Assembly: GCA_015520605.1 (NCBI GenBank)
Contig: WAPT01000024.1
Coordinates: 12,645-76,644, forward strand
DNA: 64,000 nt
DNA from: Nanobdellati archaeon
Lineage (GTDB): Archaea; EX4484-52; WAPT01
Reading direction: 5' to 3'
Shown here: positions 3,782 through 49,425 of the stretch, piece after piece
How the letters are laid out: every line of letters starts with the position of its first letter
Numbering within the stretch: the first letter of the stretch is position 1
Translations under genes and position numbers: made by a program
Notes under the pieces: generated by a model
The model's database searches: none
Seen by the model: only the letters and a program-made list of their open reading frames with translations
What the model was told of the DNA's origin: nothing

Positions 3782-6700
3782 TCACGCCCCAATAATTCTG
3801 AATTTGATCCGGATTCCCTCAGTTTCAAATTCATCTCCGTCCTCCACAGTTTCAAACCTAACGGATATATTGGTGTCCTTTTCAATCATTTCCTTCCATC
3901 TCTCCACGAACTCCTTACTTCCCTCAACAGCAACCACAGCCTTATCCTCAAACCTCAGACCAAGTTCCTTCCTCGCGAGCTGAATTCTCCTTATGAATTC
4001 CCTTGCGATACCCTCCTCCTTAAGCTCGGGTGTTAGTTCAACCTTAAGAAGCACGGCGGTGTTCTTCACCACTCTGCCGTCATAGCCTTCGGGCAGGGAA
4101 ACCAACTTCACTCTAACATCGATCATGTCTCCTGTTAGTTCAAAACCACCAATCTCGATTCTTCCATCTTTTTCAAGAGCTTCGAGCACATCCTTTCCGT
4201 TTAGAGACTTGAGCGCCTCCACAACCTCTCTAGTTCTCTTTCCGAATCTGGGTCCTATAACATCATACCTTGGTCTCACTTCGTAATCTAATTGGATGTC
4301 ATCCCTTATTTTAACTCTCTTCACATTCGCGAGTTTCATGATTATCTCCTTTAGATTACCAAGAGCTTCGGTGAGCTCATTCGCGGAGAGCACAACCTCT
4401 TCGAGAGGCCACCTGAGCCTTATATTGCGGCTCTGCCTCATGGAGTTTACCTCCTCCACCACACCCATGACAAGATCCATTTTGCTTTCCAGAGTTTCGT
4501 CGATTTCCTTTTCGTTCCATGAAGGCCAGGACAGCAGATGTATGGATCCCTCTCTTACAATCTCTCTGAAAACCTTGAGATAGAGGTACTCAGCAACATA
4601 CGGTGTAAACGGCGCAAGCATTTTCAACACTTCGAAGTAAGCTCTGGAGATGACGTAATCCATGGCATCCCTGTCCACACCTTCATCGTACCTCTCCTTT
4701 GCTATTTTCAGGTAGAATCGCGAGAAGTCTTCCATCACGAAGTTCACGATTTCCCTGGCAGCGTAATGGAAGTGGAAGGTGTCTATGTACTCAGTAACTC
4801 TTTTTATGGTTGAGTTCAACCTCGAGAGCAACCATCTGTCTTCGGCCCTGCTTACATACTGTTGGTTATCAAGCCTTATCTTTACACCGTACATGTCGAT
4901 GAAATTGGAAATATTGACAAGAATGTTCATGAAGCGGAAAAGCTCCTTTGCTTCATTCATGCTGAACTTGTGCGTTTCCCATGGAGCTGTGCTGTAGCAT
5001 ACGTAAAGCCTTAGAACATCAGCACCAAGCTGCTCGAAGGCCTCCTCAGCCGAGATCACGTTGCCCAAGCTTTTGCTCATCTTCTCTCCTTTTTCATCAA
5101 GAACCCATCCGTTCATGCACACAACATCGTATGGCCTCTCTTTGAAAGTTGCAGCTGACATGAAAAGCATCGCGTGGAACCATCCTCTTATTTGATCCTG
5201 AGATTCATCAACCAGATCAACGCGCCACAACTTGTTAAACAGACCGCTATCATTGTAAGGGTAGCCGAGTGATGCCCAAGGAGCGACACCGCTCTCCACC
5301 CATATATTTATTATGTCTGGAATCCTTTTCATTTCCCCTCCACACTTCTCGCAGCGCAGCACAACTTTATCAACGACATGCTTGTGAAGATCATCAAGCT
5401 TAACTTCATTTATCATTCTCTCATCCAACTCCTTTTTGCTGCCGATGGCAATCATGTGTCCACAGTTCTTACACTCCCAGATTGGGATCGGAGCTCCCCA
5501 GTAGCGCTGCGTGGATATACACCAATCCTCTTCATTCTCCACCCAATGCTTCATTCTCTCCCTTGCAAAATCAGGGAGCCACATTGTTTCTTCGTTGAAT
5601 TTGAGCATGAGATCCTTTATCGGATCGATGCGGAAGAACCACTGGTCGGTGGTGCGATAAATTAAAGGTGTCTTGCACCTCCAGCAGAGCGGGTAGCTGT
5701 GTACTATTCTCTCAGCATGGAAGAGCAAACCTTTTGCTCTCAGATGTTCTATTATCTCCTTATCGGCATCCTTCGCAAACTTACCTTTAAGCCATCCAGC
5801 CTCGCTGGTAAACCTGCCCTCATCATCAACAGGAGAGAGCACGGGCAGGTCATAATGCTGCCCGAGCTTGTTATCCTCAGGCCCGTGGCCGGGGGCACAG
5901 TGCACTATCCCTGTACCGACATTCATCGTTACCATGTGGCCGAATACTTCCTCTTCACTCTCCTTACTTTCGATCTCTTTCTTGACCATAACCTTAGAAG
6001 CAACTACTTTCTTCAGAATCGGTACAGACAGCACTACCCTATGGGCTCTCCCGCTCTTTGCAGCTTCCTGCTGAACCGGCAGCTCTGACATGAGGGGCTC
6101 ATATTCTATCCCGTCAAGATCCTTACCCTTTAAGACTTCCACAACCTCATAACTTTCAATTCCCGCTCTTTTCATCACATCTTCAAGCCTTTTCTCAGCA
6201 AGAATGAGAATCTCATCATTGACCTTCACTTTAACGTAGTTCTCGTCTGGATGCACAACGAGAGCTACATTGGCTGGCAGAGTCCACGGTGTGGTGGTCC
6301 ACGCAAGGAGGTATTCATTCTCCTTGTCCTTAACCTTGAACTTAACATAAATGGAAGGGTCTGTGACATTCTTGTATGAATCCGTTGCCTCATACCCCGA
6401 AATGGAGGTCTGACACCTCGGGCACCAGTGGATTGGTTTTTTACCCTTGACCATCAACCCTTCATCGAAGAGCTTCTTGACGGTCCACCATGTGCTCTCT
6501 ATATAGTATGGCTCATAAGTCAAGTAGGGCTGTAGCCAACCCTTCCAGGCTGCAAGATCTTTATAGTAGTTCATCCACTCGGTAAGATTCTGAGTGGCAA
6601 ACTCCTTACACATCTTTATAAAGTTCTCAACACCAACTTTTTCTTCAATCTCCTTTTTGGATTGTATGCCAAGTCTCTTTTCCATCATGTTCTCAATTGG

Positions 6701-42979: not shown

Positions 42980-43990
42980 GTGTGGGAAATGGAGGATGTA
43001 GAGGATGTAGGGGAGATTAAGGATGAGGATGTTAAGTACCTGGAAAAAAAGTACCTGGAAAAAATGATAAAGAACAACAGTATGTTCTTCACAAAGAAAG
43101 CTTCCATCTATCCCATCGTGGGCGGGATTCAGGGAGCGCTGTTCCTAATCGTCGGAGCTGTGCCGACCTTCGTTGCTTTTCTGACGTTCCTTATCCTACG
43201 ATCCGGTGCGGGGATATTTCTAAGTTTCGCCGGAGAAAGGGTGATATGGAGCGTAATGCTGCGGATAATCCTAACTTTCATGTTCGGTCTGTGGATGCTC
43301 GCGTTCCTACATTCCGCTGTACTTAGAGAGTTTATGCGTTCGTCTATCGGAGCTCTTATCGGCGGGCTTATCAGCGTTTTCATGACACCCCAAGCTTTTC
43401 CAGAAGTGAAAACTGCAGGACTTCTTCTTATCTTCTCAAGCTTTGTGACCATGGCCTGCATCGTGATATGTAATGAAGAGGCCAAGAGGATAGCAAAGAG
43501 GAAAGTGAGGATAAAACAGGTGGATGAGGAGACTCTGAAGCTCATCAGGATCATGGAGAACATAAAGTCGTCCGCGGATTTCTATGCGAGGATCGTGAAC
43601 GCACTCTACTACATCTGCACAGGACTCGGGGTGCTTTTCGTGGGCAGCATGACTGTATTTTCCCATATTCCAGTTTATTCATACGTCCATGTAACATCAC
43701 ACCATCCCAATTTCTGGAGCATACTGTTATTTTCACTGGCATTCACCATGCCGCTGGCATTGGTGTTCTCATTCCGAAAATACCTTTACTGGACAGGCGT
43801 CGCATTCTTCAGTATCCTGGCCGTCGTTTTGGTAGCTAAGGCCGTATCCAGCAGACTGTACATAAACGTCTTGGGACTGATAGCTCTGGTAGCTGCTGTA
43901 GCAATGCCTGTCCTGGCACTGATGTTATCACCTATCCTGAAGCATCAGAGGCTAAGGGAGAAGGTGATGGAGATAGGAGAACTGCTTTAG
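42980..43990 (+). CDS. Polytopic membrane protein of unknown function.
   Basis: 336 aa with multiple hydrophobic segments and an acidic N-terminus. Confidence 0.55.
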   Translation: MWEMEDVEDVGEIKDEDVKYLEKKYLEKMIKNNSMFFTKKASIYPIVGGIQGALFLIVGAVPTFVAFLTFLILRSGAGIFLSFAGERVIWSVMLRIILTFMFGLWMLAFLHSAVLREFMRSSIGALIGGLISVFMTPQAFPEVKTAGLLLIFSSFVTMACIVICNEEAKRIAKRKVRIKQVDEETLKLIRIMENIKSSADFYARIVNALYYICTGLGVLFVGSMTVFSHIPVYSYVHVTSHHPNFWSILLFSLAFTMPLALVFSFRKYLYWTGVAFFSILAVVLVAKAVSSRLYINVLGLIALVAAVAMPVLALMLSPILKHQRLREKVMEIGELL

Positions 43991-44104: not shown

Positions 44105-45868
44105 ATGCTGGTGGGTGAAGTTTTCGGCAAGACCGGTACCAAAACCTTCCAGTTTCGAGCTTACAAGGAGGTCAACAGAATGGATTTTGTTACTGTGAAG
44201 AGTGTTGATGACCACTGGCTTCTCTGCCGGATTGAGGATGTGGAGATGTATCCTGACGGTAAGATAATCGGCAAAGCAAGGATAATCGGTTACAGAGAAG
44301 ATGGGATACTGAAGATCCCAAAGGTCCCCATTAAGCCCAACAGCCTTGTTTACAAAGCAGACAAGGGAATCATAACTGAAGTTCTCAATTTGAAAATGGA
44401 CGGCCTTTACATAGGCGTGCTTGAGGCTAATGAGGATGTGAAGGTATACCTTGATCCGCAGGAGCTCATATCAAAGCATGTTGCCGTGCTTGCCGCCACC
44501 GGATCGGGTAAGTCTTACACGGTCGGTGTGCTCATAGAGGAGATAGCGGAGAGGAGGATTCCGATCGTGGTGATCGATCCCCATGGCGAGTACACATCCA
44601 TGAGGTTTCCGAATGATCAGAAGGATGTTAAGGCTTTCAAGAAATTTGGAGTGAATCCGAAGGGTTATGATGTGCAACACTACAGCCCCGATCCCCGCGT
44701 TAACCCCGGTGCTATGCAGCTCAGCTTTGGTTACGATGAGATAGATCCGAGAGAGATAGGCATGCTGTTTCCCTCAAAGCCCACAGCTTCTCAGCTCGCC
44801 TTGCTTTATGCGGCTTTTAAGAGAATAAAATCCACAAAAAAGAACTTCACACTCGATGATATTATAGCGGATGTGGAACAGAGTCAGAGCCAGAGCAAGT
44901 GGAACGTAATAAACATGCTCGAGATGCTGAAGGATATGAGAATTTTCAGCGGGAATCCCACCCCCGTCACAAAACTGGTGGTGCCGGGAAAGATAACCGT
45001 TATTAACCTGAGAGGGGTAACGCAAGAAGTTCAGGCCTACGTCGTGTACAAGATGGTTGAAAGGTTGTTCGAAGCAAGAAAAATAGGGATGATAAATCCA
45101 TGTTTCCTTGTGATTGAGGAAGCGCACAACTTCGTGCCGCAGAGCGAGGCAAAGATAAGCTCAAAGATAATAAAAAACGTTGCTTCCGAAGGAAGGAAGT
45201 TCGGTTTGGGGCTTTGTGTAATAAGCCAGAGACCGGCAAGGATAGACAAGAACGTGCTGAGCCAGTGCAACACACAGATAATCCTAAGGATGATGAATCC
45301 AAACGATTTGAAAGCTGTGAGCTATGCTGAAGGGCTTAGCGCTGAGCTGGAGAAGGAGATAAAGAACCTCAACACAGGCACCGCTCTTATGATAGGGCAG
45401 GAATTTCCCATCATAGTTAAGATAAGGGTCAGGAGGAGCAAGCACGGCGGAACAACTCAAGACGTTACGGAGCAGAGAGAAAATACGATCCCAATATTCC
45501 TACCTCTCAAACCAGTTCAGCACGTGCCGTCTGGAAGCAAGGTTTACTATCCCTGCTGGGTTTTCAATTCTGAGGGGAAGCGCTATGTTATGGACGCGGT
45601 ACAGGGTAAGTTCCTCTTCTTTGATGGAAACGTCGTCAGAGAGCAAAACGGAAGTGGGAGTATATTAGAAATGAATATAGAGCACGGCACAGAAGAGATT
45701 GTCGGTAGAGTTATAAGGGCTGAAATAGGTCACAAACGGGCATTGAGCATCGGGAAGAAATTCTTTGGCAGAATTGATAGTGTACAACTTGTTTACTATC
45801 CTTACATTGTAACGGAGGATGAGCTCATCGATCTTGTAACCGGAGCGATGAAAAAGTTGGGAAGATAA
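44105..45868 (+). CDS. HerA-like / DUF87 P-loop ATPase (FtsK-HerA superfamily).
   Basis: N-terminal barrel-like segment, Walker A (AVLAATGSGKSY) and Walker B (...LVIEEAHNF). No NurA-like partner is present in the window. Confidence 0.75.
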   Translation: MLVGEVFGKTGTKTFQFRAYKEVNRMDFVTVKSVDDHWLLCRIEDVEMYPDGKIIGKARIIGYREDGILKIPKVPIKPNSLVYKADKGIITEVLNLKMDGLYIGVLEANEDVKVYLDPQELISKHVAVLAATGSGKSYTVGVLIEEIAERRIPIVVIDPHGEYTSMRFPNDQKDVKAFKKFGVNPKGYDVQHYSPDPRVNPGAMQLSFGYDEIDPREIGMLFPSKPTASQLALLYAAFKRIKSTKKNFTLDDIIADVEQSQSQSKWNVINMLEMLKDMRIFSGNPTPVTKLVVPGKITVINLRGVTQEVQAYVVYKMVERLFEARKIGMINPCFLVIEEAHNFVPQSEAKISSKIIKNVASEGRKFGLGLCVISQRPARIDKNVLSQCNTQIILRMMNPNDLKAVSYAEGLSAELEKEIKNLNTGTALMIGQEFPIIVKIRVRRSKHGGTTQDVTEQRENTIPIFLPLKPVQHVPSGSKVYYPCWVFNSEGKRYVMDAVQGKFLFFDGNVVREQNGSGSILEMNIEHGTEEIVGRVIRAEIGHKRALSIGKKFFGRIDSVQLVYYPYIVTEDELIDLVTGAMKKLGR

Positions 45869-45991
45869 TGCTCACAGGCAGACCAAAACACACACATCTA
45901 ATGGAAATGTTTCGGATCAAAATTTTTAAACCTTCATGTTTTATTACCATTTAGAGATATCAAAGCGCATTTCTTTGCTGGGACAATAAAT

Positions 45992-46084
45992 GTAGTGTCA
46001 TTTATGCACTCTGTCTCGCCTGACCCGCGGCAGAAAGGCAGAGATATACTTCATTAAACGTCCGTTAAACGTCCGCGGGGATGA
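45992..46084. repeat. Copy A of a ~93-bp intergenic element with a GC-palindrome-flanked core (GACCCGCGG-N31-CCGCGGGG). It contains an internal 11-bp tandem duplication (TTAAACGTCCG x2).
   Basis: The 43-bp core gacccgcggcagaaaggcagagatatacttcattaaacgtccg...cggggatga is identical to copy B at 48886-48936. It lies 45 bp upstream of the start of gene 46129. Confidence 0.8.
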
Positions 46085-46128
46085 TGGTTGTTGGTGTGGA
46101 AGAGAATTTTTAGAGGAGGTGGTGTGGT

Positions 46129-46719
46129 TTGAAGTCCAAGACCAAGATAGTTAGGGTATTTCAGCTTCTAGTTCTCGTCTTTTTTGTAGTTCAGGGAATG
46201 TACATAGCGCACTCGATAATCCAACATCACCACTATCTTCAGTCACTCCCAGATACCACACAGGAAATGTATTTAAATCAGGAAATTCTGAAGTGGGCTC
46301 GTCAGCAGAACATATCGGTCATTTTCGATGAGAACTACAAACCATTTATGAAAGTGAAGAACAGCAAAGAACTGATAACGAATTTTGAAGAAATTAAAGA
46401 AATAAAGACAGCGCTGATAATCTCAGTAATACCTAGAGAGCGGATTAATGATGCTTTCAAACCAGATCTCTTGATCAAATACTATCTAATATCTCCCGCC
46501 GGTATACGTTACTATGAGGACTATTACATAGCGCCGACAGGATACACGATAGTCAAGTACAACCAAAACGGTGTCGTTATTCTGAAAAAGGACGTCACAC
46601 TAGGGTGGCTCAGGACAATCACTCATGGAAGAAATGTTCTTGTGGGGATAGTGATGCTATTCATCGATGTGACCCTTCTGAGAGTAGCATTTCCGAAGGG
46701 AGAGAACACAGATGTCTAG
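46129..46719 (+). CDS. Membrane-anchored hypothetical protein (196 aa).
   Basis: N-terminal TM segment, with a GGAGG-type Shine-Dalgarno upstream. Confidence 0.55.
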   Translation: MKSKTKIVRVFQLLVLVFFVVQGMYIAHSIIQHHHYLQSLPDTTQEMYLNQEILKWARQQNISVIFDENYKPFMKVKNSKELITNFEEIKEIKTALIISVIPRERINDAFKPDLLIKYYLISPAGIRYYEDYYIAPTGYTIVKYNQNGVVILKKDVTLGWLRTITHGRNVLVGIVMLFIDVTLLRVAFPKGENTDV

Positions 46720-46775
46720 AGAGAACACCGAAGTGAGAGTTATTTTCCTTATTTTTTCTTTTATTTTTAGGAAAC

Positions 46776-47669
46776 TTATCCAACTTTCAAATCCACCGCA
46801 ACCCGATAATGATACGGTGCAACGGCCCCGCATTTCCTGAAGAAAACGACTCTTGCATCTTTTCCCGCATTTCTGCAACGTTCTTCAACCCTTCTTATCA
46901 CATCCCTGCTCTCAATTTCCTCCTCGCTTGCAAATGTGTAAAGATGTGTCATACCTCCTTTTTTCACCTTTTCAAGCGCAAGCTCAAGGTAGTCTGGAGC
47001 GTCCTTCGGAGCGGGCATAACGATGCGGTCAAATTTTCCTTCAAGCCTCGGTACCACTTCAGCAACATCCCCTTCAATAACCCTCACCCTGTCCTCAACT
47101 TTGTTCAACACGACATTCTTTCTAAAGTATTCAACAGCATGTGGATTAAGCTCAACTCCGATTACTTCTCTTGGTTTGGCATTCTTGGATATCACTATGG
47201 CAAACGGCCCAACTCCGGCAAACATAACGAGAACCCTCTCACCATCCTTAACCATTTCCGCGATCCTTTTCCTCTCAAACCCCAGCCTTGAGGAAAAGTA
47301 GACTTTAGCCACATCGAGCAGAAACCTGCATCCGTGCTCCGTGTGCACAGTCTCGGTTATTTTTTTTGGCCGGAATTCCTTTTTTATGGTGGGAAAGTCT
47401 CTCTCTTCCGGCTTTGCCAAGATAACCTCAAATTCAGGTACCCTAAACTTGCCTGCAACATCCCCTGTTTTGTTGAGCACCACTTTAACATTCCTGTTGA
47501 GTTGCATTATTGCTTTTGCTATCAACTCGGCATGCTTTCTCGCGACTTCATCCAATTCTACTATTGCAATATCCCCGATTATCTCGAAGGCCCGTGGGAT
47601 GTGTTCAAGTTCATCCCTCCTTACATCCCCTTCCAGCAGTTTACGGATGTTCAGCTTATCTCCGCTCAT
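46776..47669 (-). CDS. trm5: tRNA (guanine37-N1)-methyltransferase Trm5 / Taw22 family.
   Basis: Class I SAM-methyltransferase motifs (VLVMFAGVGPF; ...DRIVM) and the Met-10+ like architecture. Confidence 0.8.
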   Translation of the reverse strand: MSGDKLNIRKLLEGDVRRDELEHIPRAFEIIGDIAIVELDEVARKHAELIAKAIMQLNRNVKVVLNKTGDVAGKFRVPEFEVILAKPEERDFPTIKKEFRPKKITETVHTEHGCRFLLDVAKVYFSSRLGFERKRIAEMVKDGERVLVMFAGVGPFAIVISKNAKPREVIGVELNPHAVEYFRKNVVLNKVEDRVRVIEGDVAEVVPRLEGKFDRIVMPAPKDAPDYLELALEKVKKGGMTHLYTFASEEEIESRDVIRRVEERCRNAGKDARVVFFRKCGAVAPYHYRVAVDLKVG

Positions 47670-47729
47670 ATTCCACCAGCTACTTCCTGTTTTCCCAACT
47701 TTTTAAATATCCTCCTTCAAAGCTTCTTT

Positions 47730-48482
47730 ATGCTCTGGCTTATTGGGTTGGGGGTTGGAGATGAAAGGGATATGAGTATAAAGGGGCTTGAAGCATGCAA
47801 AAGAGCGGATGTGATTTTTCTGGAGAGGTACACCTCTCCGGTAAAGATAAACGTCGGGAACCTAAGAAAGCTTGTGGGAAAGGACGTTATTGAGCTCAGC
47901 AGGGAGGATGTGGAGGAAAAAAACCTCGTGGTTAGGGAGGCGGAAAAGAGGAATGTGGCTTTTCTCGTTCCCGGAGACCCGCTCTTCGCAACAACCCACA
48001 AGGAAATCGTGAGAGAATGCATGCTAAGAAAAATAAGAGTAGAGGTAATCCATGCCTCTTCCATTCTAACAGCTGTCGGGGAGAGTGGTCTTTCTCTCTA
48101 CAAGTTCGGAAGGGTGGTAAGCCTCCCTTTCCCGCAGGAAAACTACTTTCCTCTGAGTCCTTATGACCACATCCTGACAAATTTAAAAGCGGGTCTGCAC
48201 ACACTTATCCTCCTCGATATTGGGATGGATGTACACACAGCCATTGATGTGCTGCTGAGAATGGAAGAGAAAAAGAAAGGAAGAATATTTACGCAGGATA
48301 CGAAGCTCGTGGTTCTGTCAAGACTCGGCAGCCCTAACAAATCCATACTTTATAGTTCGATTTCGAAACTAAAAAGTATTGATTTCGGAGAATCACCTCA
48401 CTCTCTTGTCATACCGGCTGAGCTAGAACATCATGAGAAAGAATTCCTTGAGCTCTTTGAGGTGGAAAATGAGCAGCGATAA
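47730..48482 (+). CDS. dph5: Diphthine synthase (Dph5). The track ORF is over-extended upstream to 47334.
   Basis: Tetrapyrrole-methylase fold MLWLIGLGVGDERD... Confidence 0.88.
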   Translation: MLWLIGLGVGDERDMSIKGLEACKRADVIFLERYTSPVKINVGNLRKLVGKDVIELSREDVEEKNLVVREAEKRNVAFLVPGDPLFATTHKEIVRECMLRKIRVEVIHASSILTAVGESGLSLYKFGRVVSLPFPQENYFPLSPYDHILTNLKAGLHTLILLDIGMDVHTAIDVLLRMEEKKKGRIFTQDTKLVVLSRLGSPNKSILYSSISKLKSIDFGESPHSLVIPAELEHHEKEFLELFEVENEQR

Positions 48483-48720
48483 CCTTAAAGACGAGCTGAT
48501 AAGAGAAACGGAAAAGTGGCTGGAAAGGCTGGAAAGCATAGAAATAGAACTCCTTAACAGCTCTCATAAGGACTTTGTTGAAAATATAAAAGCATACATT
48601 GAGGATGCACGTTATTTTCTGGAAAAGCGGGACTATATAAGGGCATTCGAAGCTGTTGTGTGGGCTTGGGCTTGGCTTGAGATCGGCGAGAGGGTTGGGT
48701 TGCTGAGAAGAAAGGTTTAA
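48469..48720 (+). CDS. Hypothetical small helical protein.
   Basis: In-frame ATG overlapping the dph5 stop; unknown function. Confidence 0.4.
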   Translation: MSSDNLKDELIRETEKWLERLESIEIELLNSSHKDFVENIKAYIEDARYFLEKRDYIRAFEAVVWAWAWLEIGERVGLLRRKV

Positions 48721-48843
48721 ACAATAATTCATGAAATCGTAAAAACACGAGTAGAAAACTTTTTAAATTTTCTTGTTTAATCACAAATTCGTACTAAAAC
48801 CAGAAATTCTCTGACTCATCGGGATCGGATACTTCCATACAGA

Positions 48844-48936
48844 TAGTGTGGCTTCTGACTTTTTCTTGTCCCCGCTATCCCGGCGACCCGCGGCAGAAAG
48901 GCAGAGATATACTTCATTAAACGTCCGCGGGGATGA
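48844..48936. repeat. Copy B of the ~93-bp GC-palindrome-flanked intergenic element.
   Basis: Core identical to copy A, with partial similarity in the upstream arm (tagtgt...tgtc.cgc). It lies 46 bp upstream of the start of gene 48982. Confidence 0.8.
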
Positions 48937-48981
48937 GGTCGTGCGGTTTTTGATGGGTGGTGTAAAGGAAAAACTGGGGAG

Positions 48982-49425
48982 GTGAGAAAATTGGAGAAGA
49001 AAAAGGAAGCCCCACTAGGAATAAAGATACTGGCAGCACTATACTTTATTTCCCTTGCATTCTATCTTTTCGGTTTAGCGGTTCTGATACCCAGGCTCGG
49101 CTTCCTCTTCAGCTACAACCCAATGGTGGCTCTGCTGATAGTGATAACCACCATCATAATGATTGCACTGGCGGGTATGTGGTACGGGCTCTTGAAGCTA
49201 AATCCAACAGCATGGAGAGTTGCGATGGTTTTGTATGGCGTTGGATTGATCATCAATCTCCTCTCTCTGAATGTAATTGCTGTGATAGTGGGGATCATAA
49301 TACTATGGTACCTTTATTCCAAGAAGGAACTCTATCTGGGTCCTTCTGAGGTGGCTGGTGGAACCCCGGCAGCTCTTCAGACCCAAGAAGAACAGGGTTC
49401 ACAGACTCCAGAAGAACAGGGGTAA
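48982..49425 (+). CDS. Small polytopic membrane protein with a Gln/Glu-rich C-terminal tail.
   Basis: 4 predicted TM helices, and a C-terminus reading ...TPAALQTQEEQGSQTPEEQG. Confidence 0.55.
   Translation: MRKLEKKKEAPLGIKILAALYFISLAFYLFGLAVLIPRLGFLFSYNPMVALLIVITTIIMIALAGMWYGLLKLNPTAWRVAMVLYGVGLIINLLSLNVIAVIVGIIILWYLYSKKELYLGPSEVAGGTPAALQTQEEQGSQTPEEQG

Follow-up and report, generated by a model that had tools for sequence, protein, structure and literature searches.

A short repeat flanked by GC-rich palindromes occurs twice in a 64-kb stretch of archaeal DNA (45% G+C; the whole stretch is called the window below), each time a short distance upstream of a different gene, and the question raised by this locus is what the repeat is and what it does for these genes. 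The original prediction, made from the letters of the window alone, offered three answers: a shared promoter plus operator, a structured 5' leader or small RNA, and a miniature repeat element. Among these options, the structured 5' leader appears to be the best fit, with a TATA box upstream and conservation of the whole intergenic unit. The repeat is proposed to be the conserved 3' hairpin of a 5' leader of ~175-200 nucleotides (nt), that is, a cis-acting, protein-binding RNA with a kink-turn that would control the downstream gene. The probability of this reading was estimated to be about 0.42.

A repeat search of the window revealed two exact direct matches between the copies, one of 43 nt (46022-46064 and 48885-48927) and one of 20 nt (46065-46084 and 48917-48936), which combine into a 52-nt core, GACCCGCGG-N31-CCGCGGG-GATGA. 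No 52-mer match was found in 100 shuffles of the window, and the 43-mer had a BLAST E value of 3e-19. Thus, the identical core that had been claimed for the two copies was found, as was the 7-bp GC-rich inverted repeat (CCCGCGG/CCGCGGG) in both of them. In the first copy (copy A; the second is copy B), TTAAACGTCCG is present in tandem (46054-46064 and 46065-46075, 11 bp each), again as had been described. This duplication increases the length of the loop between the arms from 31 to 42 nt, does not affect the stem and is shared with two loci of the same species (L001 and L004). The similarity upstream of the cores, which had been described as a diverged arm, is weaker (TAGTGT, 45993 and 48844) and real: alignment carries homology back to a TATA box, TTTTTAAA, common to both copies.

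Because the proteins encoded downstream of the two copies are both orphans, diphthine synthase (dph5) was chosen as the anchor for the syntenic loci of relatives. The set comprised loci of the same species (L001, L002 and L004), loci with 94% identical (L010, L003, L018 and L019) or 75% identical Dph5 (L012, L013 and L026), and more distant loci with 65% (L014 and L015) or 62% identity (L016). The copies occupy three sites, after HerA (site A), after DUF357 (site B) and before the ortholog of the window gene for a membrane protein of 336 amino acids (aa; 42980-43990; site C). A pattern scan and a covariance model (R1), which scored hairpins A and B at 80.8 and 87 bits, detected intact copies at site A in the window, L010 and L014 and at site B in the window, L010, L018 and L012. 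Intact copies at site C are present in L010, L018 and L019. The A copy of L012 is decayed, although GCAGAGATAT is still kept, and the L016 locus has no copy. In ~170 kb of the window and the relatives' loci, no copies were found beyond these three sites, which lie within ~6 kb of one another, and each genome region contains 1-3 copies. There were 0 matches to the arm pattern in viral contigs, and a scan of genome and metagenome contig collections with the 19-mer GGCAGAGATATACTTCATT, taken from the variable loop and not from the arms, gave only chance matches in unrelated contigs. Rather than being confined to the window, the element is conserved at syntenic sites in three other lineages of a small group of uncultured archaea, which is represented by metagenome bins of hydrothermal type.

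The conservation is unevenly distributed. GACCCGCGGCAG and ACGYCCGCGGGGATGA are invariant in all lineages, and a 12-nt left block and a 16-nt right block are identical, bar one Y position, in seven copies from four lineages; the lone substitution in the right block is a T to C in L014, which looks neutral in that its position was left bulged by RNAalifold. The ~20 nt between the invariant blocks vary, with AAAGGCAGAGATATAC in the window, AGGGGCAGAAACAT in L010/L018, AAGGGCAGAGCGAT in L012 and TGATACATTGCTTT in L014, while the loop keeps a length of 29-31 nt across lineages (42 nt in copy A). The identity of dph5 third codon positions with the window was 83% for L018, 41% for L012 and 37% for L014. 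Since the arms do not vary at a third-position identity of 37-41%, it may be concluded that they are under strong purifying selection. The loop centre, judging from the same alignment, appears to evolve close to neutrally.

This pattern bears directly on the possibility that the loop is the promoter of the downstream gene, with the palindrome flanking it. The window loop does contain AAAGG...GATATAC, which had been described as BRE/TATA-like (BRE, transcription factor B recognition element), and the start codon follows 44-54 nt after the core. However, the GATATAC segment is not conserved, being GAAACAT in L010/L018, GAGCGAT in L012 and TTGCTTT in L014, and a copy of the consensus TTTAAAWA lies upstream in every unit. 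The replacement of GATATAC in relatives therefore removes the BRE/TATA reading of the loop, and a promoter at this position is highly improbable.

The position of the consensus TATA box points to a long leader. Every unit has a BRE-like A-rich stretch followed by TTTTTAAA, 100-140 nt 5' of the hairpin. The same motif is found ahead of the tRNA genes and leaderless genes of the window, and the TATA consensus of the genome is TTTAAAWA. In dph5, Tyw2 and most other genes of the region, the TATA box lies 30-45 nt before the start codon. The genes behind copies A and B (genes A and B) are exceptional in that their nearest consensus TATA box is 200-230 nt upstream of the start codon. Between this box and the Shine-Dalgarno sequences of genes A and B, no promoter-like motif was found, nor was a conserved promoter found between the hairpin and the start codon. 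With a consensus TATA box 100-140 nt upstream of the hairpin and none in between, the hairpin is placed inside a leader of the length proposed above, the transcription start being estimated at ~25 nt past the TATA box. Genes A and B are, on these grounds, probably transcribed from the upstream TATA box, with the hairpin in their leader.

The same promoter could instead serve stand-alone small RNA genes of ~150-190 nt that end with the hairpin and merely happen to lie upstream of protein genes. The unit has a strong TATA box of its own, its initially transcribed sequence, AUUCGUACUAAAA, is conserved, and U5 tracts 10-25 nt past the hairpins (46107-46111 and 48947-48951) are possible archaeal terminators. 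Small RNA genes would, however, leave the downstream genes, which have Shine-Dalgarno sequences, with no promoter of their own; moreover, the U-tract is missing in L012 and L014, and the duplicated unit of L018 takes in the start of a coding sequence. Such an arrangement is considered quite unlikely.

Within the predicted leader, the flanks of the element have the sequence signature of a putative kink-turn with a GAU bulge. In 7 of 7 copies, GA is located directly 5' of the stem and GAU-GA directly 3' of it, that is, GA-[CCCGCGG...CCGCGGG]-GAU-GA. The stem, CCGCGGG/CCCGCGG, which would form the canonical (C) helix, consists of seven pairs and is 100% paired in six distinct sequences. The kink-turn register fits in the sequence as well, with a 3-nt bulge followed by GA on both strands, which could form tandem sheared G:A/A:G pairs. 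It was shown previously that the L7Ae-binding motifs in the 5' untranslated regions (UTRs) of archaeal l7ae genes are kink-turns with a GAU bulge (PMC6298567, PMC5539422) and that half of the described L7Ae-binding kink-turns carry their terminal loop at the C helix (Huang, Ashraf & Lilley 2019, PMC6298567; Daume et al. 2017, PMC5539422); other mRNAs are also bound and repressed by L7Ae via such motifs (PMC5539422). In copy A, the flanks CUGA ... AUGAUGG resemble box D and box C, and U:U, G:C, G:C and U:G pairs are possible past the G:A pairs.

Several observations weigh against a kink-turn hairpin. The 7-bp stem shows no covariation, since none of its seven pairs ever varies; therefore, the pairing is a putative one, and recognition at the DNA level accounts for the invariance equally well. 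The non-canonical (NC) helix (3b:3n to 8b:8n) is 50% paired, which is no better than shuffled or slid controls, and its 3b:3n pair is U:U, G:C or C:U. The folding energies of the hairpin and of the leader were no better than those of shuffles on both strands (RNAfold, z = +0.1 to +1.0), so that thermodynamics alone is uninformative. The generic signature (GA, a stem of at least 6 bp, NNNGA) occurs 6 times in the window versus 0.94 expected; its rarity speaks for the kink-turn, but it is not unique. In addition, the Shine-Dalgarno sequence is located 30-40 nt downstream, outside the hairpin, unlike in l7ae leaders, and the known occlusion mechanism is therefore not directly transferable. Finally, the transcription start is an estimated one, and the comparison comprises four independent lineages.

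The invariance of the arms is also a point for a DNA operator, in which the CCGCGG palindromes, 35-37 bp apart (48 in copy A), would be bound by a transcription factor acting as a roadblock or through looping. Arms that are invariant without covariation are what base-specific DNA recognition predicts; furthermore, each arm contains a self-complementary hexamer, and the 11-bp insertion of copy A amounts to about one helical turn. On the other hand, archaeal repressors usually act over the BRE, the TATA box or the transcription start, whereas this site lies ~70-110 bp past the estimated start. With distances of 35, 37 and 48 bp from centre to centre, the palindromes are out of helical phase, a symmetric operator leaves the asymmetric invariant extensions (a left-hand GA, a right-hand GGATGA, and CAG and ACGY in the interior) unexplained, and the entire 200-nt unit is conserved, beyond the arms alone. 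An operator is accordingly regarded as unlikely. Thus, of the promoter plus operator originally proposed, the promoter half was lost with the unconserved TATA of the loop, and the operator half is disfavoured by its position downstream of the estimated start. If an explanation at the DNA level were nevertheless true, the element would define the site bound by an unknown regulator of this uncultured lineage.

The remainder of the leader is conserved as well. From the TATA box to the hairpin, the B unit is 72% identical between the window and L018 and 56% identical between the window and L012, and the rest of the unit also aligns. The blocks CUCUGACUCA, GGGAUCGGAU and AGAUAGYGUGG recur in B leaders across lineages, and GGGAYC...YAGYGUK is common to A- and B-type leaders in all lineages. 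In copy A, UAGUGU was placed by RNAfold in the loop of a 7-bp hairpin. For three B-type leaders, compensatory changes were found at 3 of the 34 pairs predicted by RNAalifold. In each leader, the pyrimidine block could pair with the region 3' of the hairpin to give a closing helix, which was non-significant (p 0.06-0.9).

A long leader with several conserved blocks, associated with membrane proteins that include a small one of four segments, could also be a ligand-sensing riboswitch. In that case, the whole leader would be the aptamer plus the expression platform for an ion or small molecule, and the kink-turn would be architectural only. The few compensatory pairs in the 5' domain and the U-tract that 4 of 6 units have between hairpin and Shine-Dalgarno sequence are in agreement with this. 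The SAM-I, lysine and cobalamin riboswitches contain a kink-turn, and the present units resemble them in having a long leader before transporter-like small membrane proteins and possibly an architectural kink-turn. Unlike in these riboswitches, no covarying multi-helix aptamer and no hint of a ligand from gene function were found here. A search of Rfam 15 detected only five tRNAs in the window at the gathering score and nothing over the element at E values up to 10. The testable stems lack covariation, and the long-range closing helix lacks significance. Moreover, the genes at site A are orphans with no relation to one another, one having a soluble product, and the distribution is very narrow. 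A riboswitch is therefore considered improbable.

Comparison of the kink-turn leader with the l7ae 5'-UTR motifs (PMC5539422, PMC6298567) revealed both likenesses and differences. In both cases (here as predicted from the sequence), a stem-loop is located in a 5' leader and has a GAU bulge followed by GA with GA opposite, the C helix can carry the terminal loop, the NC helix is weak, and the genome is dominated by genes with short leaders or none. Given its weak NC helix, the motif would be expected to fold only with protein. In contrast to the l7ae motifs, the C helix here is a long one of 7 GC-rich pairs that ends in a loop of 29-31 nt, or 42 nt in copy A, and the hairpin is embedded in a much larger conserved leader, at 30-40 nt from the Shine-Dalgarno sequence. 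Furthermore, the genes encode membrane proteins or orphans rather than L7Ae or Nop5, the element exists in multiple copies that evolve in concert, and the binding is putative.

Box C/D small RNAs were considered for the same reason. The CUGA ... (R)UGAUG-like boxes of copy A stand around the helix in the order D-like then C-like, as do internal D'/C' boxes; however, they are separated here by a hairpin of at least 45 nt versus a loop of 3-9 nt. No terminal pair of C box and D box was found at guide distance in the flanks of any copy. No C/D family of Rfam matches the element, the weak C/D matches in the region being off the element and on the other strand, and no guide complementarity was evident, although no dedicated search for complementarity was made. 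Set beside these known systems, the element is a real, lineage-restricted one under strong selection that is absent from Rfam, and on the proposed reading it would be a variant of a kink-turn-bearing regulatory leader.

If the kink-turn leader is what the element represents, the following scheme may be suggested. The leader would be transcribed from the conserved TATA box together with the downstream gene, which usually encodes a membrane protein. The hairpin would consist of the GC-rich C helix, the cap loop, the GAU bulge on the 3' strand and GA on each strand. A kink-turn-binding protein would recognise this hairpin RNA and thereby set the translation or stability of the downstream message. 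Since all archaea have L7Ae, this protein would be the obvious candidate. A rough six-frame search of the window with regular expressions, for two short L7Ae-like peptide motifs and not amounting to a proper homology search, found no l7ae-like motif. Several membrane-protein genes behind one leader would thus come under common post-transcriptional control, and the unit would spread locally by segmental duplication, with short-tract gene conversion keeping the copies identical.

Two further candidate features of the leader were examined and rejected. A pseudoknot between the 3' half of the loop and the leader was discarded: the sole complementary 7-mer, GUUUAAU, lies upstream of the estimated transcription start, and no covariation was found in L012. 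An upstream open reading frame of 3-10 codons (46080-46111 and 48932-48952 in the window) begins at the invariant AUG of GAUGA in every copy; its peptide is not conserved, its spacing from any Shine-Dalgarno-like sequence is wrong, and it was judged incidental. This frame continues into the downstream gene in L010 and L018 copy C, where the gene caller chose its AUG as the start. Another GA, 6-bp stem, NNNGA signature (46671-46705) is located at the 3' end of gene A and is probably due to chance.

The history of the unit was reconstructed from the relatives. The A-type and B-type flanks are distinct, old and orthologous between the window and L010/L018. The variable loop, by contrast, is identical among paralogs in one genome (A = B in the window; A = B = C in L010/L018) and differs between the window and the L010/L018 genomes by four substitutions and a 2-nt indel. 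Since the loop is the same within a genome and different between genomes, it may be concluded that the copies evolve in concert. On the sequence comparison, the simplest explanation would be short-tract gene conversion, with the invariant arms as anchors; the homogeneity may alternatively stem from co-evolution with a trans factor.

Duplication of the unit was observed in L018. Over ~215 nt, starting at the TATA box and ending 15 nt beyond GAUGA, the identity of its C unit to its B unit is 100%. The C copy also holds ~15 nt from the end of DUF357 and, in more diverged form, the ~10 initial codons of gene B (EKKEAPLGIK). This gene B start is fused to a 329-aa membrane protein, whose ortholog in the window has none of it. 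Therefore, the whole segment comprising promoter, leader and gene start was duplicated before another membrane-protein gene. Such capture of a whole unit ahead of a new gene, seen in L018 and L010, is what would be expected if the leader gives useful control. The small regulon suggested originally receives some support from this, a third gene having gained the unit in a relative, and from the finding that six of the seven genes that follow an intact copy are membrane-protein genes. The presence of a unit varies too: L018 lacks the entire A unit (leader plus orphan gene), although L010, another strain of the same species, has it. In L018 (8976-9046, compared with 45868-46776 of the window), only 70 nt separate the HerA stop from the Tyw2 stop, and the junction shows a 3-nt microhomology and no target duplication.

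Cassette-like turnover and homogenisation could also indicate a repeat without a regulatory role, either selfish or serving as a substrate for recombination, for example a cassette-exchange site like integron attC kept identical by gene conversion. At site A, homology between the window and L010 stops exactly at GGGGATGA, beyond which the genes are unrelated; the presence of the A cassette varies within one species; toxin-antitoxin genes lie nearby in relatives; and the copies evolve in concert. The element also resembles attC sites, repetitive extragenic palindromic (REP) sequences and miniature inverted-repeat transposable elements (MITEs) in being a short, imperfect palindrome that has variable orphan genes beside it and a species-specific homogenised sequence. 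Unlike these, it is embedded in a promoter-leader unit and is present in 1-3 copies in the sequence examined, with no recombinase or cassette array. No integrase or transposase was found among the called genes near any locus, and the attC boxes (RYYYAAC ... GTTRRRY) are absent from the element. The copies sit among housekeeping genes, and the C copy arose by segmental duplication with flanking gene fragments, not by site-specific insertion. In addition, the arms are invariant in the deeply diverged lineages L012 and L014, each with a single copy; therefore, gene conversion cannot explain their invariance. A recombination site is thus very unlikely. The miniature repeat element of the original prediction is not supported, on much the same evidence: terminal inverted repeats and target-site duplications are absent, only three neighbouring sites are occupied in the sequence examined, and the segmental duplications carry pieces of flanking genes. 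The copies were also considered as att sites of an integrated element, which was rejected since the genes between them, for Tyw2, diphthine synthase and DUF357, are conserved in their synteny.

To our knowledge, few cis-regulatory RNAs are known in archaea, and very few natural mRNAs other than that of l7ae itself have been described as targets of L7Ae-type regulation. If the kink-turn leader is real, a compact natural case of the growth of an archaeal post-transcriptional regulon would be at hand, with a leader that is conserved, not in Rfam and copied before a new gene. A bolder version is doubtful, namely that this is an undescribed archaeal leader RNA for small membrane proteins (a new riboswitch class or a kink-turn ribonucleoprotein switch) that recruits genes by promoter-leader duplication and whose copies are matched to one trans partner by gene conversion. 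The features discussed are listed in Table 1.

Table 1. Positions in the window of the hairpins, predicted promoters and leaders, and downstream genes.
Feature	Positions	Strand	Details
Hairpin A	46022-46084	+	GA 46022-46023; left arm CCCGCGG 46024-46030; loop 46031-46072 (42 nt); right arm CCGCGGG 46073-46079; bulge GAU 46080-46082; GA 46083-46084
Hairpin B	48885-48936	+	GA 48885-48886; left arm 48887-48893; loop 48894-48924 (31 nt); right arm 48925-48931; bulge GAU 48932-48934; GA 48935-48936
Tandem duplication, TTAAACGTCCG x2	46054-46075	+	Spans loop and right arm of hairpin A
Predicted promoter, unit A	45917-45931	+	BRE-like CAAAAT and TATA TTTTTAAA 45923-45930; aligns with unit B and relatives' units
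Predicted promoter, unit B	48753-48768	+	BRE-like GAAAAC and TATA TTTTTAAA 48760-48767; conserved in window, L018, L012 and L026
Predicted 5' leader, gene A	45955-46128	+	~175 nt; orthologous to A-site leader of L010
Predicted 5' leader, gene B	48792-48990	+	~200 nt; aligns between lineages
5'-domain blocks, A leader	45978-45998	+	CTGGGACAAT ... TAGTGT
5'-domain blocks, B leader	48809-48849	+	CTCTGACTCA, CGGGATCGGAT, AGATAGTGT
Gene A and Shine-Dalgarno sequence GGAGGTGGTG	46115-46719	+	Shine-Dalgarno 46115-46124; TTG start, 46129-46719; 196-aa orphan
Gene B and Shine-Dalgarno sequence GGGGAGGTGA	48976-49425	+	Shine-Dalgarno 48976-48985; probable TTG start 48991, end 49425

The copies in the window are surrounded by genes for Tyw2/Trm5 (minus strand), diphthine synthase and DUF357, with HerA upstream and undecaprenyl-diphosphate synthase downstream. 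Both downstream gene products have hydrophobic stretches of transmembrane length, so that the claim of plus-strand membrane-protein genes behind both copies stood with respect to strand and hydrophobic segments. The gene B start given as 48982, by contrast, is probably wrong. This GTG is inside the Shine-Dalgarno sequence, and the database protein has 144 aa; therefore, the TTG at 48991, 5 nt past the Shine-Dalgarno sequence and 54 nt past the core, is most likely the start. The TTG start of gene A is 44 nt past the core.

The product of gene A has hydrophobic segments at its N- and C-terminus. It belongs to no Pfam family, and the sole homolog found was a 99%-identical protein from the same species. 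In L004 (120-728), also of the same species, the 3' end of the gene is frameshifted relative to the window gene, giving 202 aa versus 196 aa, which suggests that gene A is an orphan under weak constraint. The A-site genes of the different lineages are mutually unrelated (196, 127, 185 and 320 aa), and the decayed A copy of L012 precedes a gene for a soluble protein.

The product of gene B is small and has four hydrophobic segments. Its orthologs comprise 134-aa proteins in L018/L003 (55-57% identity by BLASTP) and a 91-aa protein in L012 (51%). The B-type leader precedes the gene B orthologs except in L003, whose contig begins 20 nt before the gene. The protein family is narrow; a profile search returned only weak, distant relatives at loci without the element. 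The 3' end of gene B holds an imperfect tandem repeat of 24 nt (49378-49421) that encodes QTQEEQG/SQTPEEQG; orthologs have a shorter form of this acidic, low-complexity tail or lack it.

The intergenic region between the divergent Tyw2 and dph5 genes (47697-47720 of the window) contains a single near-palindromic TATA, AACTTTTTAAATATCC, the same motif as in the leader promoters, which could serve both genes alike. Beside Tyw2, HepT/MNT (nucleotidyltransferase) toxin-antitoxin pairs are present in L012 (9144-9948) and L026 (69-873); L010 has only a decayed HepT/MNT remnant (3798-4600), and the window has no such pair. The HerA-Tyw2-dph5 neighbourhood is a rearrangement hot spot.

Metagenome/Logan contigs of L002, L004, L010, L019, L020 and L003 begin or stop within the repeat, and L010 has the same 127 nt at its two ends. 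The element breaks up metagenome assemblies: it fragments them at this locus and yields pseudo-circular contigs.

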